From Planctomycetota bacterium (GTDB lineage: Bacteria; Planctomycetota; B15-G4; SIAN01), in assembly GCA_016795285.1 (NCBI GenBank), contig JAEUIC010000030.1, forward strand, positions 47,112-111,111: a stretch of 64,000 bases of DNA, read 5' to 3'. Positions 4,532 to 64,000 of this stretch are shown one piece after another; within the stretch, counting starts at the first letter, position 1; each line of letters begins with the position of its first letter. Below the pieces are notes generated by a model. The model made no database searches and was not told the origin of the DNA. It worked only from the letters and a program-made list of their open reading frames with translations. Both the position numbers and the translations under genes were made by a program.

Positions 4532-4552
4532 TTGCGCCGCGCGGCGGTGCCG

Positions 4553-5563: not shown

Positions 5564-5704
5564 CGCGGGTTCCGAGGCGCGGCGGAAGGCCGCGCTGCGA
5601 CGCCTGCACGGTGCAGCGCGTAGGTTGACGCCTCTGGCGAGGCGCGGGAGTGTACGCCGCGCGATGGAGGTGGCCAAGGTGCGCGTGGCCGCTCGTGGCC
5701 GCTC

Positions 5705-13778: not shown

Positions 13779-14301
13779 CGACGGCGCGGTCGCCGGCCTG
13801 GCGCGCGCCGCCAGCGCCGGCGATCGCGGCGCGTTCGCGCAACTGCACGCTCGCTTCGCGCGAGCGGTGCGGGCGCTGCTGCTCGCCCATGCGCCGTTGC
13901 GCGAGGTCGACGACCTCCTGCAGGAGACCTTCCTGCAGGCGTGGCGCGCGCGCGCCGCGTTGCGCGAGCCGGACCGCTTCGGCGCGTGGCTCTTCGCGAT
14001 CGGCCGCTCGCTGGCCGGTCGCGCGCGCCGCCGCGCGCCGCGCGAGGAGCTGCCCGAGTCGCTGCCCGCGCCGGGCGCCGAGCGCCACGCGCAGCTCGCG
14101 GCCGAAGGGGCCGAGGCGCTCGCCGCGCTGCGCGAGCTGCCGGAGGCGTACCGCGAGACGCTCGCGATGCGGTTGATCGAGGGGCTGTCGGGGCCGGAGA
14201 TCGCGGCGGCGACCGGCCTCACGCACGGTTCGGTGCGCGTCAATCTCCACCGCGGCATGGAGCTGTTGCGCGAACGACTGCACGCGGGAGTGAAGCGATG
14301 A
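13753..14301 (+). CDS. ECF-type RNA polymerase sigma factor
   Basis: Region 2 reads 'LLQETFLQAWRA'. Region 4 reads 'LSGPEIAAATGLTHGSVRVNLHRGMELLRERL'. The GTG start at 13753 is inferred. The stop overlaps the anti-sigma start as ATGA. Confidence 0.8.
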   Translation: MALTPAIADDGAVAGLARAASAGDRGAFAQLHARFARAVRALLLAHAPLREVDDLLQETFLQAWRARAALREPDRFGAWLFAIGRSLAGRARRRAPREELPESLPAPGAERHAQLAAEGAEALAALRELPEAYRETLAMRLIEGLSGPEIAAATGLTHGSVRVNLHRGMELLRERLHAGVKR

Positions 14302-15455
14302 ACGACCCGCACGACGATCCGCTCTTCGATCCCGCGCTGCCGGCCGACGCCGAGCTCGGCGCGCTCGAGCGCCGCTTCGCGCCGCTGCGCGAGCGACCGT
14401 TGCCACCGTTGCCGCCGCTCACCGACGCGGCGCCCGAAGGGGTCGCGCCGCGGCTGCGCTTGCTGCGGGGCGGGCGAGCGGCGGCGGCGGCCGTGCTGCT
14501 GCTCGCGGCCGCCGCAGGAGCGTGGCGCCTCTCGATCGGCGCGGGCGGCGCTGCGGGTGGCGGCGCAAGCGGCGGCGACGCGAGCGGCGGCGCGAGCGAG
14601 CGCGAGCCGCGGGCGCCGGTGGCGAGCGCGGTCGAGGGCGCGGCGCTCGACGTTTCGCTGGCGCGGCGCGACGGCGCGGTGCGCGTCGAGCCGGCCGCGG
14701 GCGGCGCGGCGCGCGACGGCACCGACCCCGATGCGCTGCAGCTCGGCGACCGGATCGTCTGCGAGCCGGGCGGCGGCGCGCGCGTGCGCGTCGGCGCCAT
14801 CGGCTGGCTCGAACTCGCCGAGCGGACCGAGCTGCGCGTCGCGGCCGGCCATGGCGATCGCACCCGCGAAGGGGGGTGGCATCTCGAGCTCGAGCGCGGC
14901 ACGGTCGACGCGACGATCTTCGCGGCGCCGCGCGTCTTCGCGCTCGGCACGCCGGCCGGCATCGCGGTCGACCTCGGCTGCATCTACCGGACCACGGTCG
15001 ACGGCGAGGGACGCGTCTTCCTGTCGGTCGTCGCGGGCAGCGTCTCGTTCGAGAGCGGCGGACGCAAAGTGCACGTGCCAGCGGGTGCCGGCTGCCGCGC
15101 GTGGCCGATGGTCGGTCCCGGCGTTCCGTCGTGGGACGACGACGCGCCGGAGCTGAAGGAGCTGCTGCGGCTCTACGACGAGTCGCGCCTCTGCGGCGAT
15201 GGCGTCACCGCGGAAGAGCGGATCGAGCAGCTGCTCGCGCTGCTCGGGCCGAAGCCGGCGCCGCGCGCCTCGCTGTCGTTGTGGCACCTGCTCGCCGGGC
15301 TCGCGCCCGACGCGCCGCCGGCGTTGCGCACGCAGCTGGCCGATCGGCTCGCCGCGCTGGTGCCACCGCCCGAGAAGGCACCGCTCGAGCGCTGCCGCAG
15401 CGGCGATGCCGAGGCGCTCGCCGAGTGGCGCGAGGCGCTCGAACTCCACTGGTGA
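14298..15455 (+). CDS. Anti-sigma factor, FecR-domain, single TM
   Basis: The ATG at 14298 overlaps the sigma stop. The TM helix reads 'AAAAVLLLAAAAGAW'. The FecR-like beta domain reads 'GDRIVCEPGGGARVRVGAIGWLELAERTELRV...GTVDATI'. Confidence 0.75.
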   Translation: MNDPHDDPLFDPALPADAELGALERRFAPLRERPLPPLPPLTDAAPEGVAPRLRLLRGGRAAAAAVLLLAAAAGAWRLSIGAGGAAGGGASGGDASGGASEREPRAPVASAVEGAALDVSLARRDGAVRVEPAAGGAARDGTDPDALQLGDRIVCEPGGGARVRVGAIGWLELAERTELRVAAGHGDRTREGGWHLELERGTVDATIFAAPRVFALGTPAGIAVDLGCIYRTTVDGEGRVFLSVVAGSVSFESGGRKVHVPAGAGCRAWPMVGPGVPSWDDDAPELKELLRLYDESRLCGDGVTAEERIEQLLALLGPKPAPRASLSLWHLLAGLAPDAPPALRTQLADRLAALVPPPEKAPLERCRSGDAEALAEWREALELHW

Positions 15456-50794: not shown

Positions 50795-50910
50795 GTGGCG
50801 GGGAGAAAACGGCGGTCAAATCCGCACAGGTGGCGGGGGGAAAACGGCGGTCAGTTCCGCACCTCCGAGTCGAAGAGTGCGGTTCTGACCGCCGTTTTCT
50901 CCCCGCCACC
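50794..50910. repeat. REP/MITE-like element, locus 2. Three 34-35-nt units are present, two direct (50794-50827, 50829-50863) and one inverted (50877-50910).
   Basis: GGTGGCGGGGAGAAAACGGCGGTCAAATCCGCAC / GGTGGCGGGGGGAAAACGGCGGTCAGTTCCGCAC ... GTGCGGTTCTGACCGCCGTTTTCTCCCCGCCACC. Confidence 0.85.
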
Positions 50911-50960
50911 TAGACGAAACGGCGGGCGGAGCGCGTTCAGGGCGGTGGAGAACGCAGCGA

Positions 50961-51515
50961 GTGGCAGACGACGGTGAAGGGTGGGACCGCGCACGAGCGG
51001 GGACGGCGGGCGATCGGCTCGCCGGCCTCTACGTCGCGCTGCGCCACGACCTCTTCACGATCGCCTGCCACCTGACGAGCGACCGCGCGGCCGCCGAGGA
51101 CGTGGTGCACGACCTCTTCGCCGCGCTCGCCGCCCGTCCACGCGAGCTGCCGCCGTTCGCGACCCTCGCCGACGCCCGTCGCTACCTCGCCACCGCGTGC
51201 GCCCATCGCGCCCGCGATCGCGAGCGGCGCCGCCGTCCCGAGCTCGCGAGCGACGATCGGCTCGCCGCCCGCGTCGCGCCCGACGATCCGCTCCGCAGCG
51301 CGGCCACCGCTGACGAGGCCGGCCGCGTGCGCGTCGCGCTCGGCCAACTGCCGGCCGAGCAACGCGCCGTCGTGACGCTCCATCTCCACGGCGGCCTGAC
51401 CTTCCGCGCGATCGCGACGACGCTCGCGATCCCGCCCGACACGGCGATGTCGCGCTACCGCTACGCGCTCGCGAAGCTGTCGCGCCTCCTCGCCGGGACG
51501 CGCATCGAGGAGTGA
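50961..51515 (+). CDS. ECF-type sigma factor
   Basis: Region 2 reads 'DVVHDLFAAL'. Region 4 reads 'GLTFRAIATTLAIPPDTAMSRYRYALAKL'. A GTG start is inferred. The stop overlaps the next gene. Confidence 0.7.
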   Translation: MADDGEGWDRARAGTAGDRLAGLYVALRHDLFTIACHLTSDRAAAEDVVHDLFAALAARPRELPPFATLADARRYLATACAHRARDRERRRRPELASDDRLAARVAPDDPLRSAATADEAGRVRVALGQLPAEQRAVVTLHLHGGLTFRAIATTLAIPPDTAMSRYRYALAKLSRLLAGTRIEE

Positions 51516-53668
51516 CCGCGATGGACCGCATCCCGAACGACGACCCGGCCGCGCTCGATCCCGCCGCGCAGCGCGAGCTCGAGGCGCTGTTGAGCGGCGC
51601 GCGCGAGTCGGCTCCCGCGACGCTCGACGCCCGCGTCACCGCGACGCTCGCCGCGGCGAAAGCGGCCTCCGCCGCAGCGTCCGCCACGACCTCCGCCACC
51701 GCCACCGCCACCGCCGCACCGCGCCTCCTGCGCTCGCTCTCGCCGCGCCGTCGCATCGCTGCCGCTGCCGCAGTGCTGCTTGGCGCCACGGCGCTCACCT
51801 TCGCCGCGGTCCGCGCGCTCGGCGGATTCGACTCCACCGCGCCGGAGCTCGGCGAGCCGCCGCTCGCCCTGCGCGACGGTCCGCGCGCGGAGGGCGTCGC
51901 GCCGCAGCCGATCGACGTCGCCGCCGGCCGCGAACCGCTGGTGCAGATCACCGCCGAGAAGCCGGAGGGCGGCGGCGAGCCGGGCGGCAACCTCAGCGCC
52001 GCGTCGCCGCTCGAAGAAGACGATTGGGATCCGCCAGCCGACACCACCTTCCGCAGCGGCTTCCCGCGCAACCTCGACGCCCACGCCACCGTCGCCCGCG
52101 CGGCGATCGTCGCGCGGGTCCGCACCTTCGGCGGCCGCTCGGCCCTTCGGCGACTCGACGACGGCACGGTGAAGAGCTTCGACCGTCCGCTCGCGGTGAT
52201 CGAGCGCGTCTACCACGGCGACCGCTCGCTGGTCGGTCGCCGCATCGAACTGCACGCGCGCATCGGCCAGGAGTCGGAGCGCAGCTTCCTCGCCTGGGGC
52301 AGCTCGATCTTCGACGCGGGCAAGACCCGGCCCTGGATCACCACCTTCGAGCTCATCGACAAGGCGGCGCTGCCCGACGGCACGCTCCACGCGCAGCAGC
52401 TCTTCGCCGAGCTGTGGGGCGGGACGATCGTCACCGCCGAGCTGCCGCCGCAGCCGACCACGCCGATCGGTCCCGGCGAGGAGGTGGCGCAGCTGCTGTC
52501 CGATCTCGTGGCGAGCCTCGCCGCCGCCCCCTTGCGCGGCCGCGCCGACGAGGAGCTCGCCGCGGTCGTCGCGTTGCGCCACTTCGACGGCGGTGCATCG
52601 CCGCTGCCGCAGCCCGACTCGAGCGTCTGGCACGATCCCGCGGCGCGCACGGCGCTGTTCGCTGCCGCCGCCAGCCCGAACGCGACCGTGCGCTGGAACA
52701 TCGCCTGGATGAATCCGGCGGCGGCGGGCCCGGAAGGAGTGGCGCGTCTCTTCGAGCTCGCGTTCGATCGCGATCCGCTGGTGCGCCAGCCGGCGCTCCA
52801 CTGGTTGGCGCGCCCGGCAGAGGCCGGCTTCGGCGGCGACGCGGCGTTGGCCGTGGCCGCTCGCGAGCTGGTCGAGCTGGCGACGCCGCGCGCCGACACG
52901 GCGTTCGACGAGCTGCTGACCGAGGCGCTCGAGGGCCACGGCGAGCTGTTCGACGACGACTCGCTCGCTCGCCACCTCGAGCAGCTGCGCGCCGAGCGCG
53001 ATCCCGAGTCGCGGCGGCGTGCCGTGCTGGCGCTCACCGCGGTGCAACAGCGCGACGCGGTGCAGCAGCTGCTGGCGTCGCTCGCCGACGAGGAGACCGG
53101 CGTGCGCCAAGCGGCGGCGCTGGTGCTGGCCGGCGCCGGCTTCGACCACGCCTCGGAGGTGATGGAGCGGTTGCGCGCTGTCCCCGACGACGCCGAGCCG
53201 AACTTGCAGGCGCTGGTCGGCTACGCCGAGATCGCGCACGGCAGCATCTACGGCTACGACCGGATGGAGCGGTTGCTCGAGAGCGACGCGCCGGCGGTGC
53301 GCGAGCAGGTGGTGCAGCTGCTGGCGCGCGCGGCGGCGCGGCCGCGCGGTCGCGACGATGCCGTGCTGGTGGGGGAGAGCGGGCGCGGTCTCGCCGGCCT
53401 GCTGCTGCGTGCCGCCGACGATGCCGATCCGCTGGTGCGCTCGCACGCACTCGTCGCGCTCGGGCGGTTGCGCGGGAACTTCCTCGAGGGGGAGTCGCTC
53501 GCGGCGGAGTGGGAGGCTGCGCTGGAGCGAGCGGCGGCCGACAGCTCGTCGCTGGTGCGTGCCGCGGTGGAGCTGGCGCGCAGGGCGCGGGACGCGATGG
53601 CGGACTGGGAGAGCCGAGTGCAGCTCGAGTCGCTCGGCTACGTAGATGACGAGGACGACGGCAACTGA
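51512..53668 (+). CDS. Anti-sigma factor: single-pass membrane protein with a periplasmic HEAT-repeat domain
   Basis: The short cytoplasmic N-terminus is 'LDPAAQRELEALLSG'. The TM helix reads 'IAAAAAVLLGATALTFAAV'. C-terminal HEAT-like repeats include 'VRQAAALVLAGAG' and 'LVRSHALVALGRL'. The start is GTG at 51512 or ATG at 51521. Confidence 0.6.
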   Translation: MTAMDRIPNDDPAALDPAAQRELEALLSGARESAPATLDARVTATLAAAKAASAAASATTSATATATAAPRLLRSLSPRRRIAAAAAVLLGATALTFAAVRALGGFDSTAPELGEPPLALRDGPRAEGVAPQPIDVAAGREPLVQITAEKPEGGGEPGGNLSAASPLEEDDWDPPADTTFRSGFPRNLDAHATVARAAIVARVRTFGGRSALRRLDDGTVKSFDRPLAVIERVYHGDRSLVGRRIELHARIGQESERSFLAWGSSIFDAGKTRPWITTFELIDKAALPDGTLHAQQLFAELWGGTIVTAELPPQPTTPIGPGEEVAQLLSDLVASLAAAPLRGRADEELAAVVALRHFDGGASPLPQPDSSVWHDPAARTALFAAAASPNATVRWNIAWMNPAAAGPEGVARLFELAFDRDPLVRQPALHWLARPAEAGFGGDAALAVAARELVELATPRADTAFDELLTEALEGHGELFDDDSLARHLEQLRAERDPESRRRAVLALTAVQQRDAVQQLLASLADEETGVRQAAALVLAGAGFDHASEVMERLRAVPDDAEPNLQALVGYAEIAHGSIYGYDRMERLLESDAPAVREQVVQLLARAAARPRGRDDAVLVGESGRGLAGLLLRAADDADPLVRSHALVALGRLRGNFLEGESLAAEWEAALERAAADSSSLVRAAVELARRARDAMADWESRVQLESLGYVDDEDDGN

Positions 53669-53720
53669 CCGCCGACGAGCCGCTTCCCTCGCGCCGGTCG
53701 CGCCGCCAACATCGCGCGCC

Positions 53721-54554
53721 ATGAACCTCACCCGCTCGACGGCGCGCTCGCGTGCGCGCGCTCGTCTCCGCTTCGCCGTGGCGCCTTGCCTGCTGCTCGC
53801 GGCTCTTTCCGCCTGTCGCAGTGAACCGGTGCAGTCGCTCGTCGTCGCTGCGCCGCCGATCGCCGCACCGCCGCTCGCTGCGCCGGTGACGTCGCGCGAG
53901 CGCTCGACGCGGGAGATCACGGTGAAGAGCGAGCTCGCCTACCTGCTCACGCTGCCGCGCGGCTACGTCGACGCCGGCGTGGCGGGCGCGCCGCGCTGGC
54001 CGCTCGTCGTCTTTTTGCACGGGATGGGCGAGCGCGGCAGCGACCTCGCGATGGTGGCGCGCCACGGTCCGCCGAAGCTGATCGCCGCGGGGCGCGAGTT
54101 CCCGGCGATCGTCGTCTCGCCGCAATGCCCGCTGCAGCCGCAGTTCGGCTGGTCGACGACCGCGGTGCTGGCGCTGCTCGAGGACGTCTGCGAGCGCTAT
54201 GCGGTCGACGCGTCGCGCGTCTACCTCACCGGGCTCAGCATGGGCGGCTACGGGACGTGGGCGATCGCGTGCGAGCAGCCGCAGCGCTTCGCCGCCATCG
54301 CGCCGATCTGCGGCGGCGGCGATCCGGCCAAGGCGGCCGCGCTGGTCGGCCTGCCGACCTGGGTCTTCCACGGCGGCGCCGATCCGGTGGTGCCGCTGGC
54401 GCAGAGCGAGTCGATGGTGAAGGCGATCGAGGCGGCGGGCGGCCACCCGAAGGTCACCGTCTACGACGGCGTCGGCCACGACAGCTGGAGCGCTGCGTAC
54501 GACGACGCGGCGTTCTGGGAGTGGCTCTTCGAGCAGCGGCGCGAGGCGCGCTAA
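53721..54554 (+). CDS. Alpha/beta-hydrolase esterase lipoprotein (PHB-depolymerase / carboxylesterase-like)
   Basis: The lipobox is 'LLAALSAC'. The nucleophile elbow is 'GLSMGGYGTW'. 'VFLHGMGERGSD' and 'VFHGGADPVVP' are also present. Confidence 0.75.
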   Translation: MNLTRSTARSRARARLRFAVAPCLLLAALSACRSEPVQSLVVAAPPIAAPPLAAPVTSRERSTREITVKSELAYLLTLPRGYVDAGVAGAPRWPLVVFLHGMGERGSDLAMVARHGPPKLIAAGREFPAIVVSPQCPLQPQFGWSTTAVLALLEDVCERYAVDASRVYLTGLSMGGYGTWAIACEQPQRFAAIAPICGGGDPAKAAALVGLPTWVFHGGADPVVPLAQSESMVKAIEAAGGHPKVTVYDGVGHDSWSAAYDDAAFWEWLFEQRREAR

Positions 54555-54603: not shown

Positions 54604-54849
54604 ATGGATCCCCGAACGGCGATGGCGCCGATCGAGTCCGACGCTGGCGTGATTCCAGTTCCTCCGCTGCCGACCTACGGCGCCAGCGGTCACGATCTCA
54701 CGCTCGTGCGGATGATGCTCGAATGCACCCCCATCGAACGGATCCGCCAGATCGAGAGTGCTGCGCAGTCCCTACTGGAGCTGCGCCGTGCCTTTGAGCA
54801 GACCCGAGTTCCTGCCGATCCTCCGCGCGTTCCTCCGCGCCAAGGTTGA
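54604..54849 (+). CDS. Small hypothetical ORF (81 aa) overlapping the 5' end of the nucleotidyltransferase gene. It may be an antitoxin-like partner or an artifact.
   Basis: The ORF is present in the six-frame track. No motif was found. It overlaps the next gene by up to 92 nt. Confidence 0.2.
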   Translation: MDPRTAMAPIESDAGVIPVPPLPTYGASGHDLTLVRMMLECTPIERIRQIESAAQSLLELRRAFEQTRVPADPPRVPPRQG

Positions 54850-55303
54850 GTTCATCGTCATCGGCGGCGTCGCGGCGAACCTGCACGGCTCGCCGATGAT
54901 CACGTTCGACGTCGATTTGGTGCCGCGACGCTCGCTCGAGAACTTCGCGCGCACGATCGAGGCGCTCACGTCCCTCGATGCTTGGTATCGCGAGCATGGC
55001 GACAAGCGATTGCGCCCGACCGTTGAACGACTGCAGCACTACCCCGGCACCCACCTGCTCGAGACGCGTCACGGGAGGCTCGATCTCCTCGGTGCCGTCA
55101 GCGGCGGAGCCGGCTACGACGAGCTGCTCGAGCGAACCGTGTGGTTCGAACTCGATCCAGGCGAGCGGCTCCGAACGATCGATCTCGAGGCGCTGATCGA
55201 GCTGAAGCGGTCCATCGGCCGCGAGAAGGACCGTTCCGCGCTCCTCCTGCTCGAAGAGGTCCTCGCCGAGCGGCGCCGGCTCGGCATGCCGCGCGACGGG
55301 TGA
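54758..55303 (+). CDS. Nucleotidyltransferase-fold protein (MNT/AbiEii-like minimal NTase)
   Basis: 'KVEFIVIGGVAANLHGSPMITFDVDLV' fits the hG[GS]...h[DE]hDh NTase signature. The start is uncertain, with a later GTG or TTG near 54791-54797 possible. Confidence 0.5.
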   Translation: MLRSPYWSCAVPLSRPEFLPILRAFLRAKVEFIVIGGVAANLHGSPMITFDVDLVPRRSLENFARTIEALTSLDAWYREHGDKRLRPTVERLQHYPGTHLLETRHGRLDLLGAVSGGAGYDELLERTVWFELDPGERLRTIDLEALIELKRSIGREKDRSALLLLEEVLAERRRLGMPRDG

Positions 55304-55380
55304 CGGCAGCGTTCTCCGACGGGAACGTTCTTCCGCACGGCTCGACCTCGCCCGGCTGAATCGCCGCTTCAGGTGCCCAC

Positions 55381-55413
55381 CGTCCTAGCTCGATAGGACG
55401 GTGCATGTCCTAC
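55381..55413. promoter_or_regulatory. Palindromic operator array GTCCTA-N6-TAGGAC-N7-GTCCTA overlapping the start codon of the GntR gene
   Basis: CGTCCTAGCTCGATAGGACGGTGCATGTCCTA. Two overlapping perfect inverted repeats share the central half-site. The ATG lies at 55405-55407. Confidence 0.5.
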
Positions 55414-55821
55414 CGAGTCGACCCTTCGAGCGACGTCCCGCCTTCGCGGCAGCTGCAGGAGCAGCTGCTCGACGCGATGGCGCGCGGCGCGCTGCCGCCG
55501 GGTGCCCAGCTGCCGAGCGTCCGCGCGCTCGCCGCCGAGGCGCTGGTCAACCCCAACACGGTCGCCAAGGCGATCCGCGACCTCGAGATCGCCGGCCTGC
55601 TGATCGGCCGGAACGGGCTCGGCGTCTTCGTCAGCGCCGCCGCGCCGCGCCTCGCCATCGAGCGGCGCCGCGCCGTCACGCTCGCCACCTTCGAACGCGC
55701 GCTGCACGAAGCACTGCGCGCCGGCCATGAACCGCACCGCCTCGCCGAACTCGTCGAGCGCGCCGTCCCCGTCGACCCCATCGCGAGCGCTGCCCCGCTC
55801 GCGCCCGGAGAACTCCGATGA
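55405..55821 (+). CDS. GntR-family transcriptional regulator, short YtrA-like subfamily
   Basis: The winged helix-turn-helix reads 'LPSVRALAAEALVNPNTVAKAIRDLEIAGLL'. The stop overlaps the ABC ATPase start as ATGA. Confidence 0.8.
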   Translation: MSYRVDPSSDVPPSRQLQEQLLDAMARGALPPGAQLPSVRALAAEALVNPNTVAKAIRDLEIAGLLIGRNGLGVFVSAAAPRLAIERRRAVTLATFERALHEALRAGHEPHRLAELVERAVPVDPIASAAPLAPGELR

Positions 55822-56639
55822 ATCCGACTGCCCCCGTCTTCGCTGCGCGCGGCCTCTCCATGCGATTCGGCAAGCGCCGCGTGCTCGACGGCCTCGACCT
55901 CGAACTCGCGCCCGGCCAGGTCACCGCGCTGCTCGGCGAGAACGGCGCCGGCAAGTCGACGCTGATCAAGCTCGCGTTGGGCGTCTTGAAGGCGCAGCGC
56001 GGCACGCTCACGGTGGCCGGCTGCTGTCCGCTGAAGCAAAGCGGGCTCGTGCGCCAGCGCGTCGGCTTCGTGCCCGATGTGCCCGACGCCTACCCGTGGA
56101 TGACCGCGCGCGAGCTCTTCCGCTTCCTCGCGCCGCACTGGCCGAGCTGGGATGCGGCGCTGGCCGAGTCGCTGCTCGAGTCGCTTTGCGTCCCGACCGC
56201 GACGCCGTTCAAGTCGATGAGCCGCGGCGAGGGGATGAAGGCGATGCTGGTCGCCGCGCTCGCGCCGCGCCCGTCGCTGCTGCTGCTGGACGAGCCGTTC
56301 GCCGGCCTCGATCCGCTGGTGCGCGAGGAGGTGTTGCGCAGCGTGATCGGCGAGCTGCGCAGCGATCCGAACGGCGGCGAGCGCACCGTGCTGGTCGCCA
56401 CGCACGACCTCGACGTCGTCGCGCGCATCGCCGACCGCGTCGCGATCCTCGCGCACGGCAAGATCGCGCAGCACGGCGCGGTGGGCGAGGTCTTGGGCGC
56501 GAAGTCTCTCGATGACGGCAACGGCGCCGGCGACGGCTCCAACGCGCTCCTCGATGACGGCGCCGGCGTCGGCGCGGCGACCTTCAAGCTGCGCGACGTG
56601 CTGGCGGCGACGCGTTCCACCGAGACGGCCGTCCGATGA
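55818..56639 (+). CDS. ABC transporter ATP-binding protein
   Basis: Walker A is 'GENGAGKST'. The signature is 'MSRGEGMK'. Walker B is 'LLLLDEPFAGLD'. The stop overlaps the next start as ATGA. Confidence 0.9.
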   Translation: MNPTAPVFAARGLSMRFGKRRVLDGLDLELAPGQVTALLGENGAGKSTLIKLALGVLKAQRGTLTVAGCCPLKQSGLVRQRVGFVPDVPDAYPWMTARELFRFLAPHWPSWDAALAESLLESLCVPTATPFKSMSRGEGMKAMLVAALAPRPSLLLLDEPFAGLDPLVREEVLRSVIGELRSDPNGGERTVLVATHDLDVVARIADRVAILAHGKIAQHGAVGEVLGAKSLDDGNGAGDGSNALLDDGAGVGAATFKLRDVLAATRSTETAVR

Positions 56640-58723
56640 CCCCCTTCGCTGCCCTCGTCTGGAAGGAGTGGCGCGGCGAGCGGCGCTCGATCGCGACGTT
56701 GGCGGGAGCGGCGGCGCTGCTGCCGCTGCTCGGGCTGCTCGGCGCGCGCGAGTTCGCGGGGCGGTTCGGGTTGCAGCGCTACGCCTACGACGGCGGCACG
56801 GCGACGATCGTCGCGCAAGCGGCGCTGCTGGCGGTGGCGCTCTCGCTCGGCGCGGAGCTGCTGCCGAGCGAGTCGCGGCGCGGCTCGATTGCGTTGCTGC
56901 GGCGGCTCCCGTGCGGGCTGCTGCGGCCGTTCCTGGCGAAGTTCATGTTGCTGATCGTGGCGTCGCTGGCGACAGCGTTGGTGGCTTGGGCGTCCGCGTG
57001 CGCAGCGGTGCGCGCGACGGGCGGCGCCTGGTTCCCGCCGCTCGATTTCGGCGTGAGCCTGCTGCGCGGCGCGCCGAACCTGCTGTTGATCGTGGTGGTC
57101 GGACTGCTCGCCTTCATGGCCTCCGCCTGGATCGGTCGCGCGACGCTGGCGCTGCCGGTGGCGCTGTTGGCGGTGGCGCTCGCGCTGACGCCGTTCTGGC
57201 TCGCTCGCGACGACGACCCGCTGCTGGCGAGCGTGTCCACCCTCGTGCCGCTCCTGTGGGGCGCGGCCCTGCTCGCGCCATGCGTCGGCGCGCTCTCGTT
57301 CGTGCTCGGTCGGCGACGCGGCGGCGGCGAGTGGCGGAGCTTCGCGATCGGCGGCGCGGCGGTCGGCGCGCTCGCGCTCCCCGCAGGTGCTTGGCGCAGC
57401 GAACGAGCCGCCGAGTGGAATCGCGTCGATCCGCCGCTCGACAGCTTCCGCGTGACCGCGCTGCGGCAGCCCGGAGTGCTTGCCGCCGGGGGGCGCTACG
57501 TCTACCTCACGGCGCATCACCAGTTCGGCGACCTCGTGATCCGCGATGCGCCGCGTTGGGTCCTCGACGAGTTCATGCAGTTCCCGACGTGCGGGCGCTA
57601 CAGCGACGGGCCGCCGCATGTGCTGCAGGTCGATCTCGCGGACGGCTCTTGGCGCGACGTCGGCGGTCCGGGATCGCTGCTCTGGCTGCCGACGCGATTT
57701 GCTCCGCTCGAGGCGGTGCCCTACGTCGGGATCCGTTCCTGCCCGGAAGCGGAGCACGACCGCGCAGGATGGCGAGCGCTCCTCGACGCCAACGACGGCC
57801 GCGAGGTGGCGCGGGCGCCCGACGTGGACGAGCGCAACGCGATCGAGGGGCGTGCGGAGTGGGACGAGCTGGCGCGATCGGAGCACGTCGCCTACCTCGG
57901 CGGAGCGCGCCGCGTCTGGTTCGAACGAGAGGAGTGGTGGACGACCGATCCCGATGGCGGGTCGCGGAGGTTGCCCGACTCCGCCATGAGCCGCACCGCG
58001 CATTGGTGGTGGCGCGGATCGCAGTCGCGCGGCGTCATGGTCCAGGGACGGCGTGATGGCCCGGAGGAGGAGGAGGTCGAGATCTACGACTTCGCGCGCG
58101 AGCGACGCTTCCGGTGGTCGGACGCGTCCGCGAACCCGAGCGTGCGCAAGGGGAAGTGGATCGTCGAACGTTGGGACGCGAGCCCGCCTTCGGGGCGCCG
58201 GCGCTTCCGTTGGGAGCTCTACGACCCCGAACGCGCGGTCTCCCTGCCTGCGCCCGCCGAGGTCGCCGACCATAAGCTGCTCTGGATCGACGACGAGGGG
58301 GCAGCGATCGGCGGACCGTGGGGAGCGCACGACCAGTCGCTCGTGACCCTCGAGTGCTTCGATCCCGAGAGCGGCGTACGGTCGCCCATCGCTCTGCCTG
58401 CGCGGCTCGAGGCGCTCGCTGGCGGGGTCGTCGCGTTCGACGTCGTGGCCCGCACTCGCTTGGGCGCGCCCATCGTGCGGCTCGTCCTGCGCGGACGAGA
58501 CGGAGGCAAGGTCGAGCGCTACGCCCGTTGGGATGCGCGGCGCCGTGAGCTGCGCGTCGCCGAGGAGGCGTCCGCGAAGGAGCTCCCCCTCGTCGGTTGC
58601 CCCGACGAGGAGTCGCTGCTGGTGATCGAGCAGGGGCGCCGCCTGGTGCGGCTGCGCTTCGGCAGCGACGCGCGCGAAGTGGTCTTCCCGAGGCACGATG
58701 CGGCAAGCGGAGCGCCTCGATGA
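56636..58723 (+). CDS. Membrane protein paralog A: an ABC-2-like 6-TM N-terminal domain plus a roughly 430-aa extracytoplasmic C-terminal domain of unknown fold
   Basis: The N-terminus reads 'MTPFAALVWKEWRGERRSIATLAGAAALLP', followed by multiple hydrophobic helices. The C-terminal conserved block is 'GCPDEESLLVIEQGRRLVRLRFGSDAREVVFP'. Coupling to both flanking genes is by ATGA overlap. Confidence 0.8.
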   Translation: MTPFAALVWKEWRGERRSIATLAGAAALLPLLGLLGAREFAGRFGLQRYAYDGGTATIVAQAALLAVALSLGAELLPSESRRGSIALLRRLPCGLLRPFLAKFMLLIVASLATALVAWASACAAVRATGGAWFPPLDFGVSLLRGAPNLLLIVVVGLLAFMASAWIGRATLALPVALLAVALALTPFWLARDDDPLLASVSTLVPLLWGAALLAPCVGALSFVLGRRRGGGEWRSFAIGGAAVGALALPAGAWRSERAAEWNRVDPPLDSFRVTALRQPGVLAAGGRYVYLTAHHQFGDLVIRDAPRWVLDEFMQFPTCGRYSDGPPHVLQVDLADGSWRDVGGPGSLLWLPTRFAPLEAVPYVGIRSCPEAEHDRAGWRALLDANDGREVARAPDVDERNAIEGRAEWDELARSEHVAYLGGARRVWFEREEWWTTDPDGGSRRLPDSAMSRTAHWWWRGSQSRGVMVQGRRDGPEEEEVEIYDFARERRFRWSDASANPSVRKGKWIVERWDASPPSGRRRFRWELYDPERAVSLPAPAEVADHKLLWIDDEGAAIGGPWGAHDQSLVTLECFDPESGVRSPIALPARLEALAGGVVAFDVVARTRLGAPIVRLVLRGRDGGKVERYARWDARRRELRVAEEASAKELPLVGCPDEESLLVIEQGRRLVRLRFGSDAREVVFPRHDAASGAPR

Positions 58724-60795
58724 CTCCCTTCGCTGTCCTCGTCTGGAAGGAGTGGCGCGGCGAGCGGCGCTCGATCGCGACGTTGGCGGGGGCGGCGGCG
58801 CTGCTGCCCGTGATGGGGCTGCTCGGCGCGCGCGAGTTCGCGGGGCGGTTCGGGTTGCAGCACTACGCCTACGACGGCGGCACGGCGACGATCGTCGCGC
58901 AAGCGGCGCTGCTGGCGGTGGCGCTCTCGCTCGGCGCGGAGCTGCTGCCGGGCGAGTCGCGGCGCGGCTCGATCGCGTTGCTGCGGCGGCTCCCGTGCGG
59001 GCTGCTGCGGCCGTACCTGGCGAAGTTTGCGCTGCTGATCGCGGTGGCGCTGGCGACGGCGCTGGTGGCGTGGGCGTCCGCGTGCGCCGCGGTTCGAGCG
59101 ACCGGCGGCGTCTGGTTCCCGCCGCTCGACTTCGGGGTGAGCCTGCTGCGCGGCGTCTCGGATCTGCTGCTGATCGCGGCGGTCGGCGCGCTCGCTTTCA
59201 TGGCGTCCGCCTGGATCGGGCGGGCGACACTGGCGTTGCCGGTGGCGCTGCTGGCGGTCGCGCTCGCGCTGACGCCGTTCTGGCTCATTCACGACGACGG
59301 ACGGTTGCTGGCGAGCGCACCCACCCTCGTCCCGCTCTTGTGGGGCGCGGCGCTGCTCGCGCCATGCGTCGGAGCGCTCTCGTTCGTCGTCGGTCGCCGG
59401 CGCGGCGGAGGCGAGCTGCGGAGCCTCGCGTTCGGCGCGGGCGCGCTGGCGCTCATCGCATTGCCGGTGAACGGCTGGCGCGCGACGCGCGTCGCCGAGT
59501 GGTGCAGCGTCGATCCGCAGGCGGAGAGCTTCCGCATCACCGATGCGATCTTCGGCCACGCGCTCGCAGCGAACGGCCGCTACGCCTACCTCACGGTGCA
59601 CCATGCGTTCGGTGACCTCGTCTGGTCGGAGCGGCGCGCGACGCGCCCGGAGGACTGGAGCTACGCCAGCAACTGGGGCTTCCCGAGCGACGGTCCGAAC
59701 CACGCGCTGCAGATCGACCTCGCCGACGGCTCGTGGCGCGAGGTCGGTCAGCCGGGCGATGGGGTGTTCGTGCCGCAACTCGGCGGGGTCGCGCAGCCGA
59801 CGCCGTTCATCGCGCTCGAGCCGTTCGACTCGAGCAGCGACGCGGCGGCCGAGCGGTGCGTGCTGCTCGACGCGAACGACGGGACGGAACGGTCGCGCGA
59901 GCCGTCACGGAGCCGGCTGCGTCCGTTCACCGATCGGCCGGAGCGGCGCGAGCTCGACCGCATCTTCCAGACGGCATTCCTGCCGGACGGGCGACGCGCT
60001 TGGTTCCACCGCGGCGAGTGGGTGACCGAGACGGCCGACGGGACGTTGCGGACGCTGCCTGACTCGTCGATCGGCGGTGATCGAATCGTGCTGGCGAGCG
60101 GCGTCGGCGTCTGGATGCCGCGGGCGGGCGGGGCGGCGTCGGACGACGAAACGGTCGAGATCTACGACCTCGCGCGCGAGCGGCGTTACGAGCGATCGAC
60201 GCAGGCACCGAAGGTGATCGTGCGTGCGGGGCCGTGGATCGTGGCGGGCGACAGCTCGCAGTCGCCGCTGCAGATGGCCCCGCCGTGGAAGCTTTACGAC
60301 CCCGATCGCGACGTCGCCACGCCGCCACCGGAGGCCGTCGCGAACGACACGCTCCTCTGGATCGACGACGACGGCGCGGCGTTGGGCGGGGTTGCGGACG
60401 GGAACGGCAGGATCGCGCAGCTCTTCCGCATCGATCCGGAGCGCGGTACGCGCGAGGCGATCGCGCTGCCGGCGTGGGTCGACGCGATGGGCAACTGCTT
60501 CTACGCGATGCAAGCCGTGGCACGCACGCGGGCCGGGACGCCCATCGTGCGTCTCCTCTTCTGGACGCGGCACGGCGGCGCAATCCCCCTCTGTGCCCGC
60601 TGGGATCGCGAGCGGCGCGAGTTGCAGTTCGTGGGCGATGCGTCGCTGTCGTCACGCCCCGTCGTCGGCTGCCCCGACGAGGAGTCGCTGCTCGTCATCG
60701 ACGACGAGCGCCGCCTGGTGCGGCTGCGCTTCGGCAGCGACGCGCGCGAGGTGGTCTTCCCGATTCCGACTTCCGAAGGCGAGGCTTCCCGATGA
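58720..60795 (+). CDS. Membrane protein paralog B. It is about 90% identical to A over the N-terminal 270 aa and over the C-terminal 40 aa, and divergent in the middle.
   Basis: The N-terminus reads 'MTPFAVLVWKEWRGERRSIATLAGAAALLP', and the C-terminal block reads 'GCPDEESLLVIDDERRLVRLRFGSDAREVVFP'. Both overlaps are ATGA. Confidence 0.8.
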   Translation: MTPFAVLVWKEWRGERRSIATLAGAAALLPVMGLLGAREFAGRFGLQHYAYDGGTATIVAQAALLAVALSLGAELLPGESRRGSIALLRRLPCGLLRPYLAKFALLIAVALATALVAWASACAAVRATGGVWFPPLDFGVSLLRGVSDLLLIAAVGALAFMASAWIGRATLALPVALLAVALALTPFWLIHDDGRLLASAPTLVPLLWGAALLAPCVGALSFVVGRRRGGGELRSLAFGAGALALIALPVNGWRATRVAEWCSVDPQAESFRITDAIFGHALAANGRYAYLTVHHAFGDLVWSERRATRPEDWSYASNWGFPSDGPNHALQIDLADGSWREVGQPGDGVFVPQLGGVAQPTPFIALEPFDSSSDAAAERCVLLDANDGTERSREPSRSRLRPFTDRPERRELDRIFQTAFLPDGRRAWFHRGEWVTETADGTLRTLPDSSIGGDRIVLASGVGVWMPRAGGAASDDETVEIYDLARERRYERSTQAPKVIVRAGPWIVAGDSSQSPLQMAPPWKLYDPDRDVATPPPEAVANDTLLWIDDDGAALGGVADGNGRIAQLFRIDPERGTREAIALPAWVDAMGNCFYAMQAVARTRAGTPIVRLLFWTRHGGAIPLCARWDRERRELQFVGDASLSSRPVVGCPDEESLLVIDDERRLVRLRFGSDAREVVFPIPTSEGEASR

Positions 60796-62753
60796 ACCTG
60801 CTTCCGACGCTCCTCTGGAAGGAGTGGCGCGACCATCGCGCGGCGCTGATCGGCTACTGCGTCGGCGTGCCGCCGCTGATCGCGTGGGGGCTTTCGGCGC
60901 TGAGCGCGACGCGGCGGGTCGATCCGCTGCTGCCCGCGGCCGCGGCCGTCGGTGGCATCGCGATCGCCGCGCTGACGCTCTTCGGCGACCTCTTCGCCGG
61001 CGAGGAGCAGCGCGGGACGATCAAGCTGCTGCGCCGGCTGCCGAGCGGCCTCTCGAAGATCTTCCTCGCCAAGCTGCTCTTCCTGCTGATGGCGACCGCG
61101 CTGATGGGCGGCGTCGCGTGGCTCGCGACGACGACGGCGGCCGCGGCGCTCTACGGCGCCCCGTTCGCGCCTCGGCTCTCGCTGCCTGCGCGCGACTGGT
61201 TGGTGCTGCTCTTCCCGCTGATCGCGTGGATCCCGGCCGCGGCGATCTGGCTGTCGCGCGCGACGCTGGCGCTGCCGGCCGCGGCGCTGACGCTGGCGCT
61301 CTTCGCGGCGCCGGTCGGCTTCGCGGTCTGGCTGCAGCCGTGGCTCGCGCCGTCGAAGGGCGAGCTGCTGGTCGCCTACGTCGTCGTCACGGCGGCGGGC
61401 CCGTTCATCGCGGGCGCGTCGTTCGTGCTGGGGCGGCGGCGCAGCACGCGACCGTTCACGCCGGCGGCGGTCGGCTTGCTGGCGACGCTGGCGCTCTTCG
61501 TGCCGGCGTACGGTTGGACGGGCGTTCGGTTCGCGAAGGGGCTCGTGTTGGAGCCGGCGGCCGCGACGTTCCGCATCGCAACCAACTCGGCGGGCGCGGT
61601 GAGCCAGGACGGCCGCTTCGCCTGGATCAACGCCTTCCATGTCGCCGGTTCACGCAACGTCGCGGGCATCACCGACTACGACCCGGAGCGCGACGGCCCG
61701 CTCCACACGGTGCAGGTCGACCTCGCGGACGGTCGTTGGCGCCCGTTCGGCTCGCTCGGCGCGATGGTGCTGGCGCCCGGCTCGTTGAGCGAGCGGCGCA
61801 ACGCCGCGGTGGTGGGGCTCTTCCGCGATTCGGCACTGCGCCGCCGGGACATCAACCACGACGACCACGAGCGCGACGAGACGCTGCTGCTCGATGCGGT
61901 GACCGGCGAGCCGCTCGAAGCGACGGCGCGTGCGGCGCTGCTGGCGAAGCGCGGCGCTGCGGCGGGCGCGCTGCTGCGCGAGGCGTGCGGACTGGTGCTG
62001 CCCGATGGCCGACGCGTCTGGCGGCAGGACGATCAGTTGATGATCGATCCGGGGCGCGTGCTGCCCGACTCGCGCTGCCTCGAGAGCGGTTGGACGTCGA
62101 GCTTCTGGAGCTCGGGCAATGCCGGCTTCGGCGTTCGGGTCGCCGAGCGCGAGCTCTACGACCCGTCGCGCGAGAAGCGTTTCCGCGTGGCGCCGGAGCT
62201 GGCGGTGCTGTTCGTGCGGCCGGGCCACTGGGTGGTGTACGGATGGGATCCGAAGGGCAAGCGTGGGACGCTCGCCTACGACCCGGAGAGTGGTGCGACG
62301 GCGCCGTTGCTAGGCAGCGAGCCGAACGACTTCGTCTCGGCGCTGCTGCCCGATGGGCGCTTGCTGGTGCGGGCACGCCTCGGGAGTGGGCGTGATGCGG
62401 AACCGGCGCTGGTGCTGCTCGATCCCGAGACGGGTGCTCGCGAGGAGCTCGCGCTCGAGTTGCCGCCGGAGGCGCTCGGCATGGTGTGGCAACCGACGGG
62501 CACCGACGACGGCGCGCTGGTGGCGACGCTCTGGGGAGCGAACGTCGCGCGCTTCCTGCGGATCGAGCTGCCGGCCGACCGGCGCTCGGGCGAGCGGGCG
62601 CGCGTGGAGGTGACCGCGCCGCTCGAGCTGCCGTGCGAGTCGATCGGAGTGGTCGGCGCCGACGGCCAGTCGGTGATCGCCATCGAGGCGGGGCGCCGCC
62701 TCGTGCGCGTCCGCTTCGACGGCTCGCCGCCGGAGCAGCTCTTCCCGAAGTAA
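60792..62753 (+). CDS. Membrane protein paralog C, more divergent but with the same architecture
   Basis: The N-terminus reads 'MNLLPTLLWKEWRDHRAALIGY'. Six hydrophobic segments are present. The C-terminal block reads 'GRRLVRVRFDGSPPEQLFP'. The start overlaps the stop of paralog B as ATGA. Confidence 0.75.
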   Translation: MNLLPTLLWKEWRDHRAALIGYCVGVPPLIAWGLSALSATRRVDPLLPAAAAVGGIAIAALTLFGDLFAGEEQRGTIKLLRRLPSGLSKIFLAKLLFLLMATALMGGVAWLATTTAAAALYGAPFAPRLSLPARDWLVLLFPLIAWIPAAAIWLSRATLALPAAALTLALFAAPVGFAVWLQPWLAPSKGELLVAYVVVTAAGPFIAGASFVLGRRRSTRPFTPAAVGLLATLALFVPAYGWTGVRFAKGLVLEPAAATFRIATNSAGAVSQDGRFAWINAFHVAGSRNVAGITDYDPERDGPLHTVQVDLADGRWRPFGSLGAMVLAPGSLSERRNAAVVGLFRDSALRRRDINHDDHERDETLLLDAVTGEPLEATARAALLAKRGAAAGALLREACGLVLPDGRRVWRQDDQLMIDPGRVLPDSRCLESGWTSSFWSSGNAGFGVRVAERELYDPSREKRFRVAPELAVLFVRPGHWVVYGWDPKGKRGTLAYDPESGATAPLLGSEPNDFVSALLPDGRLLVRARLGSGRDAEPALVLLDPETGAREELALELPPEALGMVWQPTGTDDGALVATLWGANVARFLRIELPADRRSGERARVEVTAPLELPCESIGVVGADGQSVIAIEAGRRLVRVRFDGSPPEQLFPK

Positions 62754-62766
62754 GTTGCCCGTCGCG

Positions 62767-63156
62767 ATGGATCGGACGAGCGGTGCGATCGCGCGAAAAG
62801 GGAGACGAGCCTTGGACGAGCTGACGCGACGACAGGCGTTGGGAGCGTTGGTGGTGTTGGGGGCGGCGGGCGGCGCGGCGAACGTCGCGGCTCAGGAAGC
62901 GGGGGGCGAGTCGCCGCACCGCTGGAACGAGAACGAGCGGCGCGACCGGAGCAATTGCATCGCCGCCGGCATGACCGAGGCCGAAGCCGATTGCTGGGAG
63001 CTCTTCGCCCGCGCCGGCGCGGTGTTCTTCGCGCTGCCGAAGTTGCATCCCGCTGCGGACGCGGAGTTCGCCGCTGCGATGCACGTGATCCAGAAGGAGC
63101 TCTTGAGCCGACCGACCTATCGCCGCTACCTCGAGCTGTCGCGCGCCGGGCGGTGA
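62767..63156 (+). CDS. Small hypothetical protein with a Tat-like signal
   Basis: 'TRRQALGALVVLGAAGGAANVAA' is followed by a helical region. There is no domain match. A TTG at 62755 is an alternative start. Confidence 0.4.
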   Translation: MDRTSGAIARKGRRALDELTRRQALGALVVLGAAGGAANVAAQEAGGESPHRWNENERRDRSNCIAAGMTEAEADCWELFARAGAVFFALPKLHPAADAEFAAAMHVIQKELLSRPTYRRYLELSRAGR

Positions 63157-63159
63157 ACG

Positions 63160-63218
63160 CGGAGTCGGTGAGCGCGGAGTCGGTGAGCGCGGAGTCGGTG
63201 AGCGCGGAGCGTCGTGGA
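63160..63218. repeat. Tandem 15-nt repeat (GCGGAGTCGGTGAGC)x3 plus a partial unit, directly abutting repeat locus 3
   Basis: gcggagtcggtgagcgcggagtcggtgagcgcggagtcggtgagcgcggagcgtcg. Confidence 0.7.
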
Positions 63219-63238: not shown

Positions 63239-63307
63239 GTGCGGTTCTGACCGCCGTTTTCCCCCCGCCACCTGTGCGGATCTGACCGCCGTTTTCTCCC
63301 CGCCACC
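63239..63307. repeat. REP/MITE-like element, locus 3. Two tandem 34-nt units (63239-63272, 63274-63307) lie in the same orientation.
   Basis: GTGCGGTTCTGACCGCCGTTTTCCCCCCGCCACC T GTGCGGATCTGACCGCCGTTTTCTCCCCGCCACC. Confidence 0.85.
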
Positions 63308-63309
63308 GC

Positions 63310-64000
63310 TCAGGCGAGGAGCAGCACGCCGGCGGTGATCAGCAGGGCGGCGCACCAGCGGGGGGCGTCGACGCGCTCGTGGAAGAGGAGCGTGCCGACG
63401 GCGAGGCTCATCGGGATGCCGAGGTTGCGCGTGGCGACGACCAGGCTCGAGGCGCCCTGCTTCAGCGCCAGCAGGACGAGCCAGTAGCCCGACTGCATCA
63501 GCGCGCCGCCGAGCAGCATGCGCGGCACGAGCGGCACCACGCGGCGCAGGGCGACGAGCGTCAGCTCGCGCCGCACGAGCAGCCAGAGCGACATGAAGCC
63601 CACCAGGAAGAGCTGCATCACGAGGAAGTAGCACCACGTGTCGGGCTGCGACGCGTGGTGGAGCGCGGCGCGATCGGAGAGGTGGTAGCCGGCGACGCCG
63701 CAGGCGCAGAGCGCGGCGAAGCCGACGCCGCGCCAGCGCAGCGCGCTCGAAGTCGTGCTGCTCGATGTCGCGCCGCTCGCCGGCGAGGCGCGCGTGGGCG
63801 CACTCGGGCTCATGAAGGCGAGCCACGTCGCGCCCGCCAGCACCACCGCGACGGCCAGCAGCTCGCCGCCGGCGATCCGCTCGCTGGCGACGAACGTCCC
63901 CGCCGCGGCGGCCAGCACCGGCGCGAGGCCGCGCGAGAGCGGGTAGATCAGCGAGAGGTCGCTCGTCCGGTAGCCGGCGGTCAGCGCGAGGAAGGCGACC
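63310..64000 (-). CDS. EamA/DMT-family transporter, 5'-partial because it runs off the window end
   Basis: Multiple hydrophobic helices are present. The EamA-like C-terminal half reads 'SSLVVATRNLGIPMSLAVGTLLFHE'. The frame is open to position 64000. Confidence 0.55.
   Translation of the reverse strand, partial: VAFLALTAGYRTSDLSLIYPLSRGLAPVLAAAAGTFVASERIAGGELLAVAVVLAGATWLAFMSPSAPTRASPASGATSSSTTSSALRWRGVGFAALCACGVAGYHLSDRAALHHASQPDTWCYFLVMQLFLVGFMSLWLLVRRELTLVALRRVVPLVPRMLLGGALMQSGYWLVLLALKQGASSLVVATRNLGIPMSLAVGTLLFHERVDAPRWCAALLITAGVLLLA

Follow-up and report, generated by a model that had tools for sequence, protein, structure and literature searches.

Within a 64,000-nucleotide stretch of a Planctomycetota bacterium genome (assembly GCA_016795285.1, contig JAEUIC010000030.1, positions 47,112 to 111,111; hereafter the window), a compact cluster at 55379-63156 encodes a GntR regulator, an ATP-binding cassette (ABC) ATPase and three large permeases, A, B and C. 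The locus is probably a self-regulating operon that encodes a type V (ABC-2 type) ABC exporter, belonging to a family found so far only in Planctomycetota. It is a new architectural variant of this exporter type, with a YtrA-like regulator, and has so far been unannotated. Its permeases have seven transmembrane (TM) helices and a cytoplasmic N-terminus; their C-terminal part lies outside and forms a periplasmic β-propeller of about seven blades. A and B are chimeric: their membrane blocks (nucleotide 1 to about 719) are of recent common ancestry, and their propellers diverged long ago. The features of the locus are as follows, where P1 denotes A/B-like and P2 C-like permeases.

55379-55402, no strand: perfect palindrome ACCGTCCTA-GCTCGA-TAGGACGGT, last base 2 nt 5' of the GntR ATG
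55405-55821, plus strand: GntR regulator, 138 aa
55818-56639, plus strand: ABC ATPase, 273 aa
56636-58723, plus strand: permease A, P1-type, 695 aa; TM part aa 1 to ~255, propeller ~aa 256-690
58720-60795, plus strand: permease B, extra P1-type copy with the architecture of A, 691 aa
60792-62753, plus strand: permease C, P2-type partner, 653 aa
62755-63156, plus strand: small open reading frame (ORF), possible sixth operon gene, up to 133 aa, true start uncertain

Architecture of the operon and its proteins

All four junctions among the first five genes read CGATGA (at 55818, 56636, 58720 and 60792), so that start and preceding stop share 4 nt, and all six ORFs are in frame. A preliminary description of this DNA had proposed five ORFs chained by ATGA overlaps, and this is what the junctions show; the same overlaps are found in four related loci. 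That description began the locus at 55381, which falls within the palindrome (the GntR ATG is at 55405), and ended it at 63156, a span that takes in the small ORF beyond the five chained genes. The G+C content of the region is about 73%, with GC3 of 0.88-0.93, and the many long antisense ORFs are therefore regarded as composition shadows. Exact matches in the protein database bear the locus tags JNL90_16555 and JNL90_16560, from a metagenome-assembled 'Planctomycetes bacterium'. A scan for sigma-70 promoters found none, and a terminator scan gave a single weak site, within the ORF designated F.

The three permeases were analysed by profile searches and by structure prediction. A, B and C match Pfam ABC2_membrane_4 at 18.9-26.3 bits, all below its gathering score of 27. 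This is the sole Pfam family found among 62 members of the family, 18 of which match it at E≤0.01. Neither Pfam nor NCBIfam gave a match to the isolated ectodomains (the C-terminal 410-440 residues of A, B and C) up to E=5, and the propeller families PD40, DPPIV_N, WD40 and Kelch have no match in any of the 62 members. AlphaFold was run on an alignment of all 62 sequences (a run on seven sequences was poor in the membrane part, with a pLDDT of 66), giving a model of C with a pLDDT of 91.4 and a pTM of 0.86. The model has seven long helices, of which TM7 comprises residues 223-251, followed by about 30 β-strands in residues 260-651, a number that suggests about seven predicted blades. The membrane domain shows the six core helices, the N-terminal interfacial helix and the coupling helix after TM2 of the ABC-2 permease fold, and its fold matches are PmtD, Rv1217c, ABCG1, ABCG2, CcmB and KpsM. 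In the fold searches, the C-terminal part is recognised as a circular array of four-stranded antiparallel blades, that is, a β-propeller. The region that aligns least well is a helical insert in blade 2.

The TM2-TM3 loop carries a conserved E..RG....L.RLP motif. Positive charge is mostly located in this loop, at the N-terminus and in the loop after TM6, and the N-terminus is therefore placed inside. An odd number of helices is then needed for a C-terminal domain outside the cytoplasm, so that TM7 puts the propeller in the periplasm. The preliminary description was thus right to see ABC-2-like permeases with a large extracytoplasmic domain, as the weak ABC2_membrane_4 matches also show; it counted six TM helices, overlooking TM7. 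Its statement that the ectodomain has no known motif holds for Pfam, but the fold is a known one, a generic β-propeller without an assigned function. It had also suggested checking for an ectodomain of the FtsX/MacB type. No such structure is among the matches listed, and Pfam gave no match to FtsX or MacB_PCD; with seven helices and a C-terminal all-β propeller as well, this identity was rejected.

The ATPase matches Pfam ABC_tran (PF00005) at 1e-22. Its best NCBIfam matches are DrrA and PmtA, in keeping with the earlier assignment as an ABC ATPase, and it matches the lantibiotic-protection ATPase family at 2.9e-25 (NCBIfam). The motifs were read from PDB alignments and from a motif table covering 16 loci. 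Walker A (GENGAGKST), Walker B with the catalytic Glu (LLLLDEP) and the H-loop (THD) are intact in 16/16. Two motifs are variant, at about residues 84-90 and 133-142. In the first, the Q-loop Gln is replaced, by Asp in the window ATPase and by Asp, Ser or Ala across the loci (GYVPD.PD.Y). In the second, the signature is MSRGEG and not LSGGQ, with (M/L)SRG(E/Q)GMKAML present in 16/16 loci. These changes are a family-specific variant, and by its overall profile the protein is still an ABC ATPase.

The regulator matches the GntR family (Pfam PF00392) at 7.1e-14 and 51.7 bits (cut-off 27) over residues 14-76. Its best NCBIfam match is the Rv1152 family (2.6e-17, 62.8 bits, below the curated cut-off of 170), followed by PmtR (9e-9, 35.4 bits, below the curated cut-off of 200). 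In the Rigali classification, members of the YtrA subfamily are about 120-140 aa long in total, and their very short C-terminal domain comprises two helices in about 50-70 aa. The 138-aa protein is within this size range, and although its family matches lie below cut-off, the best two, Rv1152 and PmtR, are both YtrA-type, as the preliminary description had it. The gene adjoins and overlaps that of the ATPase.

The 24-bp palindrome precedes the GntR gene, and its right arm holds an AGGA 6 nt 5' of the ATG. The window contains a single copy, where shuffled sequences give an expectation of 0, and the element is present at the same position in every related locus with upstream sequence. Copies lie at 7220-7241 in locus L001, 2025-2046 in L009 and 6902-6923 in L013, and in 70 metagenome loci (L022-L091). 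These last come from a pattern scan of JGI metagenomes that gave 70 contigs with the palindrome; nearly all of those with room have a GntR start ≤60 nt downstream, and in most of those of sufficient length the ATPase and permease-propeller genes come next. The family consensus is CCGTmCTA-N3-CGATAGkACGG. The arms covary (GTCCTA...TAGGAC versus GTACTA...TAGTAC) and are otherwise almost invariant family-wide. Judged from its sequence and position, the palindrome is probably the operator of the YtrA-type repressor, where it would overlap the promoter or the beginning of an mRNA with a short leader. It is also a precise, searchable marker of the module, and offers a handle for reporter or binding assays.

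Ancestry and distribution of the permease genes

The four closest relatives of the locus (L001, L002, L004 and L005) have exactly two permease genes, P1 followed by P2. It follows that the window has one extra P1. The ancestral state of the clade is P1 then P2, and this genome has two P1 copies, A and B. B is absent at its position in all four relatives; no close relatives of B were found in the protein database, and none of its propeller in the JGI metagenomes. A is 87% identical to its ortholog in L004 (L4_P1), and C is 28-29% identical to A and to B. The P1 genes of L001 and L005 are named L1_P1 and L5_P1.

The identity of proteins A and B in 30-column windows is 83-97% as far as column 240, 9-63% in the middle, and 90% in columns 691-720; the last ten or so residues, after a conserved C-terminal block of 35 aa, are divergent. 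Independently, a repeat finder reported 300 nt at 96% identity (56634-56933 against 58718-59017). Maximum chi-square analysis places one breakpoint at nt 719 of gene A (window 57354), where mismatch goes from 9.7% to 43%, and a second at nt 1950 (window 58585). The preliminary description had recognised this mosaic, with ends about 90% identical and a divergent middle. Its extents need revision: the N-terminal block ends at about residue 240, not 270, and the C-terminal block is 35 aa long with a divergent tail of about 10 aa. It had also stated that uniform divergence would argue against gene conversion; the A-B divergence along the gene is strongly uneven. The 5' homology tracts are:

56634-57354, plus strand: tract in A (TM1-TM6 and cytoplasmic loop), partner 58718-59438
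58718-59438, plus strand: tract in B, partner 56634-57354

Amino-acid identity in the membrane block is 0.90 for A-B and 0.91 for A-L4_P1, compared with 0.56-0.62 for A or B against the other P1 orthologs. In the propeller it is 0.41 for A-B, 0.85 for A-L4_P1, 0.52 for B-L1_P1 and 0.47 for B-L5_P1. Synonymous change was compared at four-fold degenerate sites in codons with a conserved amino acid. Between A and B, the membrane block has differences at 24/153 such sites (15.7%) and the propeller at 60/106 (56.6%; Fisher p=5e-12). A versus L4_P1, used as the ortholog control, is flat (15.9% versus 12.9%, p=0.45). The NG86 synonymous divergence (dS) between A and B is 0.21 in the membrane block versus 0.79 in the propeller, and is 0 in columns 41-80.

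The two parts of the gene also give different trees. In the neighbour-joining tree of the membrane partition, A, B and L4_P1 group together at 97.5% bootstrap. In that of the propeller partition, A groups with L4_P1 (100%), and B with L1_P1 and L5_P1 (78%). Sites that group two of A, B and L4_P1 (L4) against the third are distributed as follows.

Gene A nt 1-300: A+B against L4, 18; A+L4 against B, 9; B+L4 against A, 2
Gene A nt 301-715: A+B against L4, 23; A+L4 against B, 30; B+L4 against A, 28
Gene A nt 716-1949: A+B against L4, 33; A+L4 against B, 459; B+L4 against A, 22

The pattern in the first segment indicates that exchange took place inside this genome once the L004 lineage had branched off. 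The second segment is star-like, and the propeller segment unites A with L4_P1. The 5' block thus has the low local synonymous divergence, the sharp breakpoints and the tree incongruence of gene conversion. The preliminary description had proposed conversion at both ends of the gene; the synonymous sites and the conflicting trees support it at the 5' end, and for the C-terminal block, discussed below, it is not required.

One observation counts against this account. Distant ortholog pairs also have a lower four-fold divergence in the membrane block than in the propeller (0.31-0.35 versus 0.49-0.52), so that part of the A-B contrast is a family-wide baseline. The A-B contrast is nevertheless far larger: the membrane/propeller ratio of four-fold divergence is 0.28 for A-B versus a baseline of about 0.7 in the distant pairs, and purifying selection alone thus cannot explain the 5' block.

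An alternative that we regard as unlikely is that B is a recent whole-gene duplicate of A, whose propeller (nt ~720-1950) was replaced from a foreign P1 allele by exchange in the conserved TM7 region and the C-terminal block, with no homogenisation of old paralogs. It would fit the grouping of the B propeller with P1 genes of other genera at 78% bootstrap, and the greater identity of this propeller to L1_P1 (52%) than to A (41%). The breakpoints are exactly at the edges of family-conserved blocks, and B is without a close relative in the databases, which would also agree. However, the 3' tail of A differs markedly from those of both B and L4_P1 (13/29 sites, see below), which is unexpected after a recent whole-gene duplication; the different site patterns in nt 1-300 and nt 301-715 suggest more than one exchange; and no donor was identified.

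The family as a whole does show faster evolution of the propeller. All orthologs follow a similar pattern (identity 0.57-0.77 in the membrane part versus 0.35-0.61 in the propeller), and other tandem pairs share the trend. Between A and its ortholog, dN/dS is 0.20 in the membrane domain and 0.62 in the propeller; for C and its ortholog the values are 0.36 and 0.45. No dN/dS value above 1 was obtained among those computed between orthologs, and the diversifying selection on the ectodomain suggested previously is not supported, every value being below 1; such selection at individual propeller sites is possible. These features, together with the family-wide conservation of the C-terminal block, would be expected if A and B were simply old duplicates under strong purifying selection on the membrane domain and last blade, with the rest relaxed or diversifying. 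For the 5' block this explanation is very improbable and is largely refuted by the four-fold sites (16% against 57%, with a flat ortholog control and a distant-pair ratio of about 0.7), as well as by the 96% identity of the first 300 nt and the high support of the conflicting trees.

For the C-terminal block, in contrast, selection alone is the preferred explanation. The two copies are:

58585-58691, plus strand: block of A (VGCPDEESLLVIE..RRLVRLRFGSDAREVVFP), last propeller strands, partner 60657-60763
60657-60763, plus strand: block of B, partner 58585-58691

The motif ...E(E/D)S..(V/A)I....R.L.R.RF.GS....(L/V)FP(R/K) ends the proteins family-wide. Identity in the block is 0.88 for A-B, equal to that of A or B with the distant ortholog L2_P1 (0.88), and four-fold divergence is low in distant ortholog pairs too (0.18-0.29). 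Gene conversion was therefore not accepted as the cause, the distant orthologs being equally conserved at amino-acid and four-fold sites; family-wide purifying constraint suffices. It was further observed that the block of P1 and P2 genes has about half the four-fold divergence of the remaining propeller, even in distant orthologs. This low synonymous divergence may reflect a constraint set by mRNA structure or by coupled translation of the following gene.

L4_P1, the only P1 of L004, resembles A upstream of the C-terminal block and B in the 29-nt tail and the junction to P2. In the tail, 13 sites group B with L4_P1 against A, and none groups A with L4_P1 against B; the tail of B after the block (60764-60795) matches that of L4_P1. 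When positions 2266-2466 of L004 are set against window 58560-58760 and 60632-60832, the body of A is seen joined to the 3' tail of B within the C-terminal block. The simplest reading is that the common ancestor had A, B and C, and that the L004 lineage lost B by a crossover between C-terminal blocks, the block being the likely crossover site. Against this, L004, from assembly GCA_005773305.1, is a 7.4-kb contig of a metagenome-assembled genome (MAG), in which two genes might be seen only because the assembly collapsed over the repeated blocks.

Copy number varies across the family from 1 to 4, as the preliminary description had proposed to check among relatives. One copy is commonest and several loci have two. 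L013 and L020 have three tandem copies. L048 has three tandem permease genes (3054-9053) and a fourth about 4 kb downstream (12949-14787; operator-oriented coordinates). Copies 2 and 3 of L048 have an identity of 0.95 in the membrane block versus 0.73 in the propeller, a mosaic in the same direction as that of A and B, and the L053 tandem pair has 0.69 versus 0.43. The synonymous contrast of both pairs is near the family baseline. The permeases of single-copy relatives resemble C slightly but consistently more than they do A or B, which makes C the widespread type and P1 a derived paralog of the clade. C is thus not simply an older diverged copy, as had been proposed; it is orthologous to P2, the second permease gene in an ancestral operon with two.

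The extent of the family was determined by searching 1.84 billion cluster representatives exhaustively with a profile, which gave 494 proteins (clusters) at E≤1e-3 and 79 at E≤1e-30. Among the best 150 of the 494 matches, most are 540-695 aa long and many align over both domains. A word-indexed protein search (single sequence, then profile) found only six proteins and missed gene C, probably since alanine-rich membrane words saturated the candidates. The family proteins that were looked up are unnamed or called 'hypothetical protein', and are metagenome-derived. The GTDB species genomes contain 16 loci, 16/16 in MAGs, of which 13 have titles of Planctomycetota or Planctomycetaceae, one of Phycisphaerales, and two of 'bacterium' or 'uncultured bacterium'. 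GntR and ATPase genes are immediately upstream of the permease in each GTDB locus with enough contig. From these searches the family appears so far to be confined to Planctomycetota. Literature searches found no permease fused to a β-propeller and no planctomycete GntR-ABC module; the earlier view that the architecture is uncharacterised agrees with this, and no source searched carries an annotation for it.

Proposed function and related systems

On the basis of the architecture and ancestry described above, we propose the following. GntR would sit on the palindrome and repress its own operon, with release by a substrate or an envelope signal, as for PmtR, YtrA and ClnR. Two ATPase subunits would drive a heterodimer of P1 and P2, on the model of LanFEG or LptB2FG. 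Where both A and B are present there would be A-C and B-C transporters, with a common ATPase and partner C and one different propeller. Conversion would keep the membrane blocks of A and B near-identical, and hence fitted to one ATPase and one partner, and the conserved blocks flanking the propeller would allow copies to be gained or lost by homologous recombination. The propellers, which TM7 fixes in place over the membrane domain, probably bind or hand over the exported molecule, or contact an envelope partner.

The closest known systems are PmtR-PmtABCD, the phenol-soluble modulin exporter of Staphylococcus aureus, YtrABCDEF of B. subtilis and ClnRAB of C. difficile, all of which combine a YtrA-type GntR with ABC-2 modules. 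The present locus differs from them in several respects: all its matches are below the curated family cut-offs, it has one ATPase gene and not two, its host is a diderm planctomycete, and its operator sequence is family-specific. The permeases of Pmt, Ytr and Cln also lack the seventh helix and the C-terminal β-propeller of about 400 aa.

Type V ABC exporters transport lipids, peptides, polysaccharides and drugs, and for Pmt, Nos, ABCA and Wzm/Kps the recognition and hand-over of substrate outside the membrane is a current question. A propeller fused directly to the permease would provide a compact model for this step. NosDFY and LptB2FG likewise couple a membrane domain to a β-rich module in the periplasm. 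In NosDFY, NosD is a separate protein, whereas the periplasmic module here is fused to the permease. LptFG of LptB2FG is type VI and has a β-jellyroll between TM3 and TM4, in place of a C-terminal propeller after TM7. The propellers of TolB and of S9 peptidases (acylaminoacyl peptidase, DPP4) are alike in fold class only, with TM-scores of 0.2-0.35, and the permeases here are without the peptidase domain of the latter. MacB and FtsX (type VII ABC) also carry a large extracytoplasmic domain on an ABC membrane subunit. They have four TM helices, and TM1 and TM2 enclose their periplasmic domain, made up of Porter and Sabre subdomains; the present proteins have seven, with the domain at the C-terminus.

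LanFEG (NisFEG, NukFEG) likewise has one ATPase gene and two paralogous permeases; here this likeness comes from gene content, from which we infer the heterodimer. LanFEG is type V, a 2F:1E:1G heterotetramer with an 'E-loop' replacing the Q-loop, and this loop is required for function and dispensable for ATP hydrolysis (bioRxiv 10.1101/2025.10.09.681468). The Q-loop Gln position is acidic throughout LanFEG, and Asp, Ser or Ala in the present family. LanE and LanG are without an ectodomain, in contrast to the propeller-bearing permeases here. LanFEG genes are found in lantibiotic biosynthesis clusters of Firmicutes without GntR control, while the present module is led by a GntR gene.

Several points tell against the proposed scheme. 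The variant Q-loop and signature, as read from the sequence, leave a classical exporter-motor action of the ATPase in doubt. Folded as RNA, the palindrome has an energy of -20.7 kcal/mol (z = -2.8), and it could act as a hairpin that buries the AGGA, instead of or besides acting as a DNA operator. Single-copy loci show that homodimers can work, so that A, B and C could each homodimerise. What is transported, in which direction and by which set of subunits is inferred throughout.

A more far-reaching view, which we put forward only tentatively, is that the family is a type V ABC class of the Planctomycetota's own, with the propeller as a 'receptor' on TM7. The tandem paralogs would be interchangeable specificity subunits with a common ATPase and partner, conversion keeping their membrane halves compatible, and recombination in the conserved flanking blocks adding, swapping or deleting propeller cassettes. 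If true, this would be a modular way for a transporter to vary its periplasmic recognition.

It is rather improbable, though not to be neglected, that the complex is a mechanotransducer or sensor, in which no substrate would cross the membrane and the propellers, moved by ATP hydrolysis, would remodel or sense an envelope component or relay a signal to the regulator. Analogues are machines of the MacB/FtsEX type and sensing of the BceAB type, and the rigid link between the last TM helix and the large periplasmic domain would suit such a role. The family-wide variation of the Q-loop and signature is in line with this, as is the LanFEG variant loop, needed for function and not for hydrolysis. 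Nor is any substrate, biosynthetic or partner gene conserved beside the module: among neighbours that might hint at a substrate, only GntR, ATPase and permease are conserved across loci. On the other hand, the closest folds to the membrane domain are those of the true type V exporters PmtD, Rv1217c, ABCG and KpsM, the similarities of the regulator and ATPase are to export systems (PmtR/PmtA and DrrA), and the module is without a histidine kinase or other signalling partner.

Whichever mechanism applies, the locus combines partial concerted evolution with recombination-driven copy-number change. A and B form a clean natural case in which one half of a protein evolves in concert and the other diverges, and the pair shows which surfaces must remain compatible in the complex. 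The host phylum has an unusual and poorly studied cell envelope, and all members seen are unnamed metagenomic proteins.

The small open reading frame and the flanking genes

The small ORF at 62755-63156 begins 1 nt past the stop of C and may be the sixth gene of the operon. It contains a twin-arginine-like motif, TRRQALGALVVLGAAGGAANVAAQ (TRRQALGALVV...AAQ), and has no Pfam or NCBIfam match above the curated cut-offs. It is 89% identical to L004 4365-4763, a match found in the closest relative only. Conservation is lacking over roughly the first 15 codons, which puts the true start further downstream. Tandem repeats at 63151-63209 (15 nt x 3.9) and 63239-63307 (35 nt x 2.0) occupy its 3' end and the spacer before a convergent gene:

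63310-63918, minus strand: EamA-type transporter gene

Downstream genes shared with the relatives are EamA and hemerythrin (L002 and L004) and hemerythrin (L001); the L005 contig stops too early to show this region. A ~230-aa upstream ORF is common to L010, L012, L013 and L018, with sub-threshold matches to Thioredoxin_7 and DUF6381. The other shared neighbours of the module are antisense shadow ORFs and clade-local synteny.

Upstream of the module, genes for an ECF sigma factor and a large HEAT-repeat protein are found in the window (50889-54554), in L001 (225-7144) and in L008, from Phycisphaerales (2364-4950). Only in the window and L001 was an esterase/PHB-depolymerase-like gene recognised, and the synteny is clade-local. 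Between this gene and GntR, the window has at 54604-55303 a 181-aa ORF with a weak match to the DUF2204 nucleotidyltransferase family (E 1.2e-3), together with a small overlapping upstream ORF. Since GntR directly follows the esterase gene in L001, the pair looks like a local insertion, possibly of a toxin-antitoxin-like pair.

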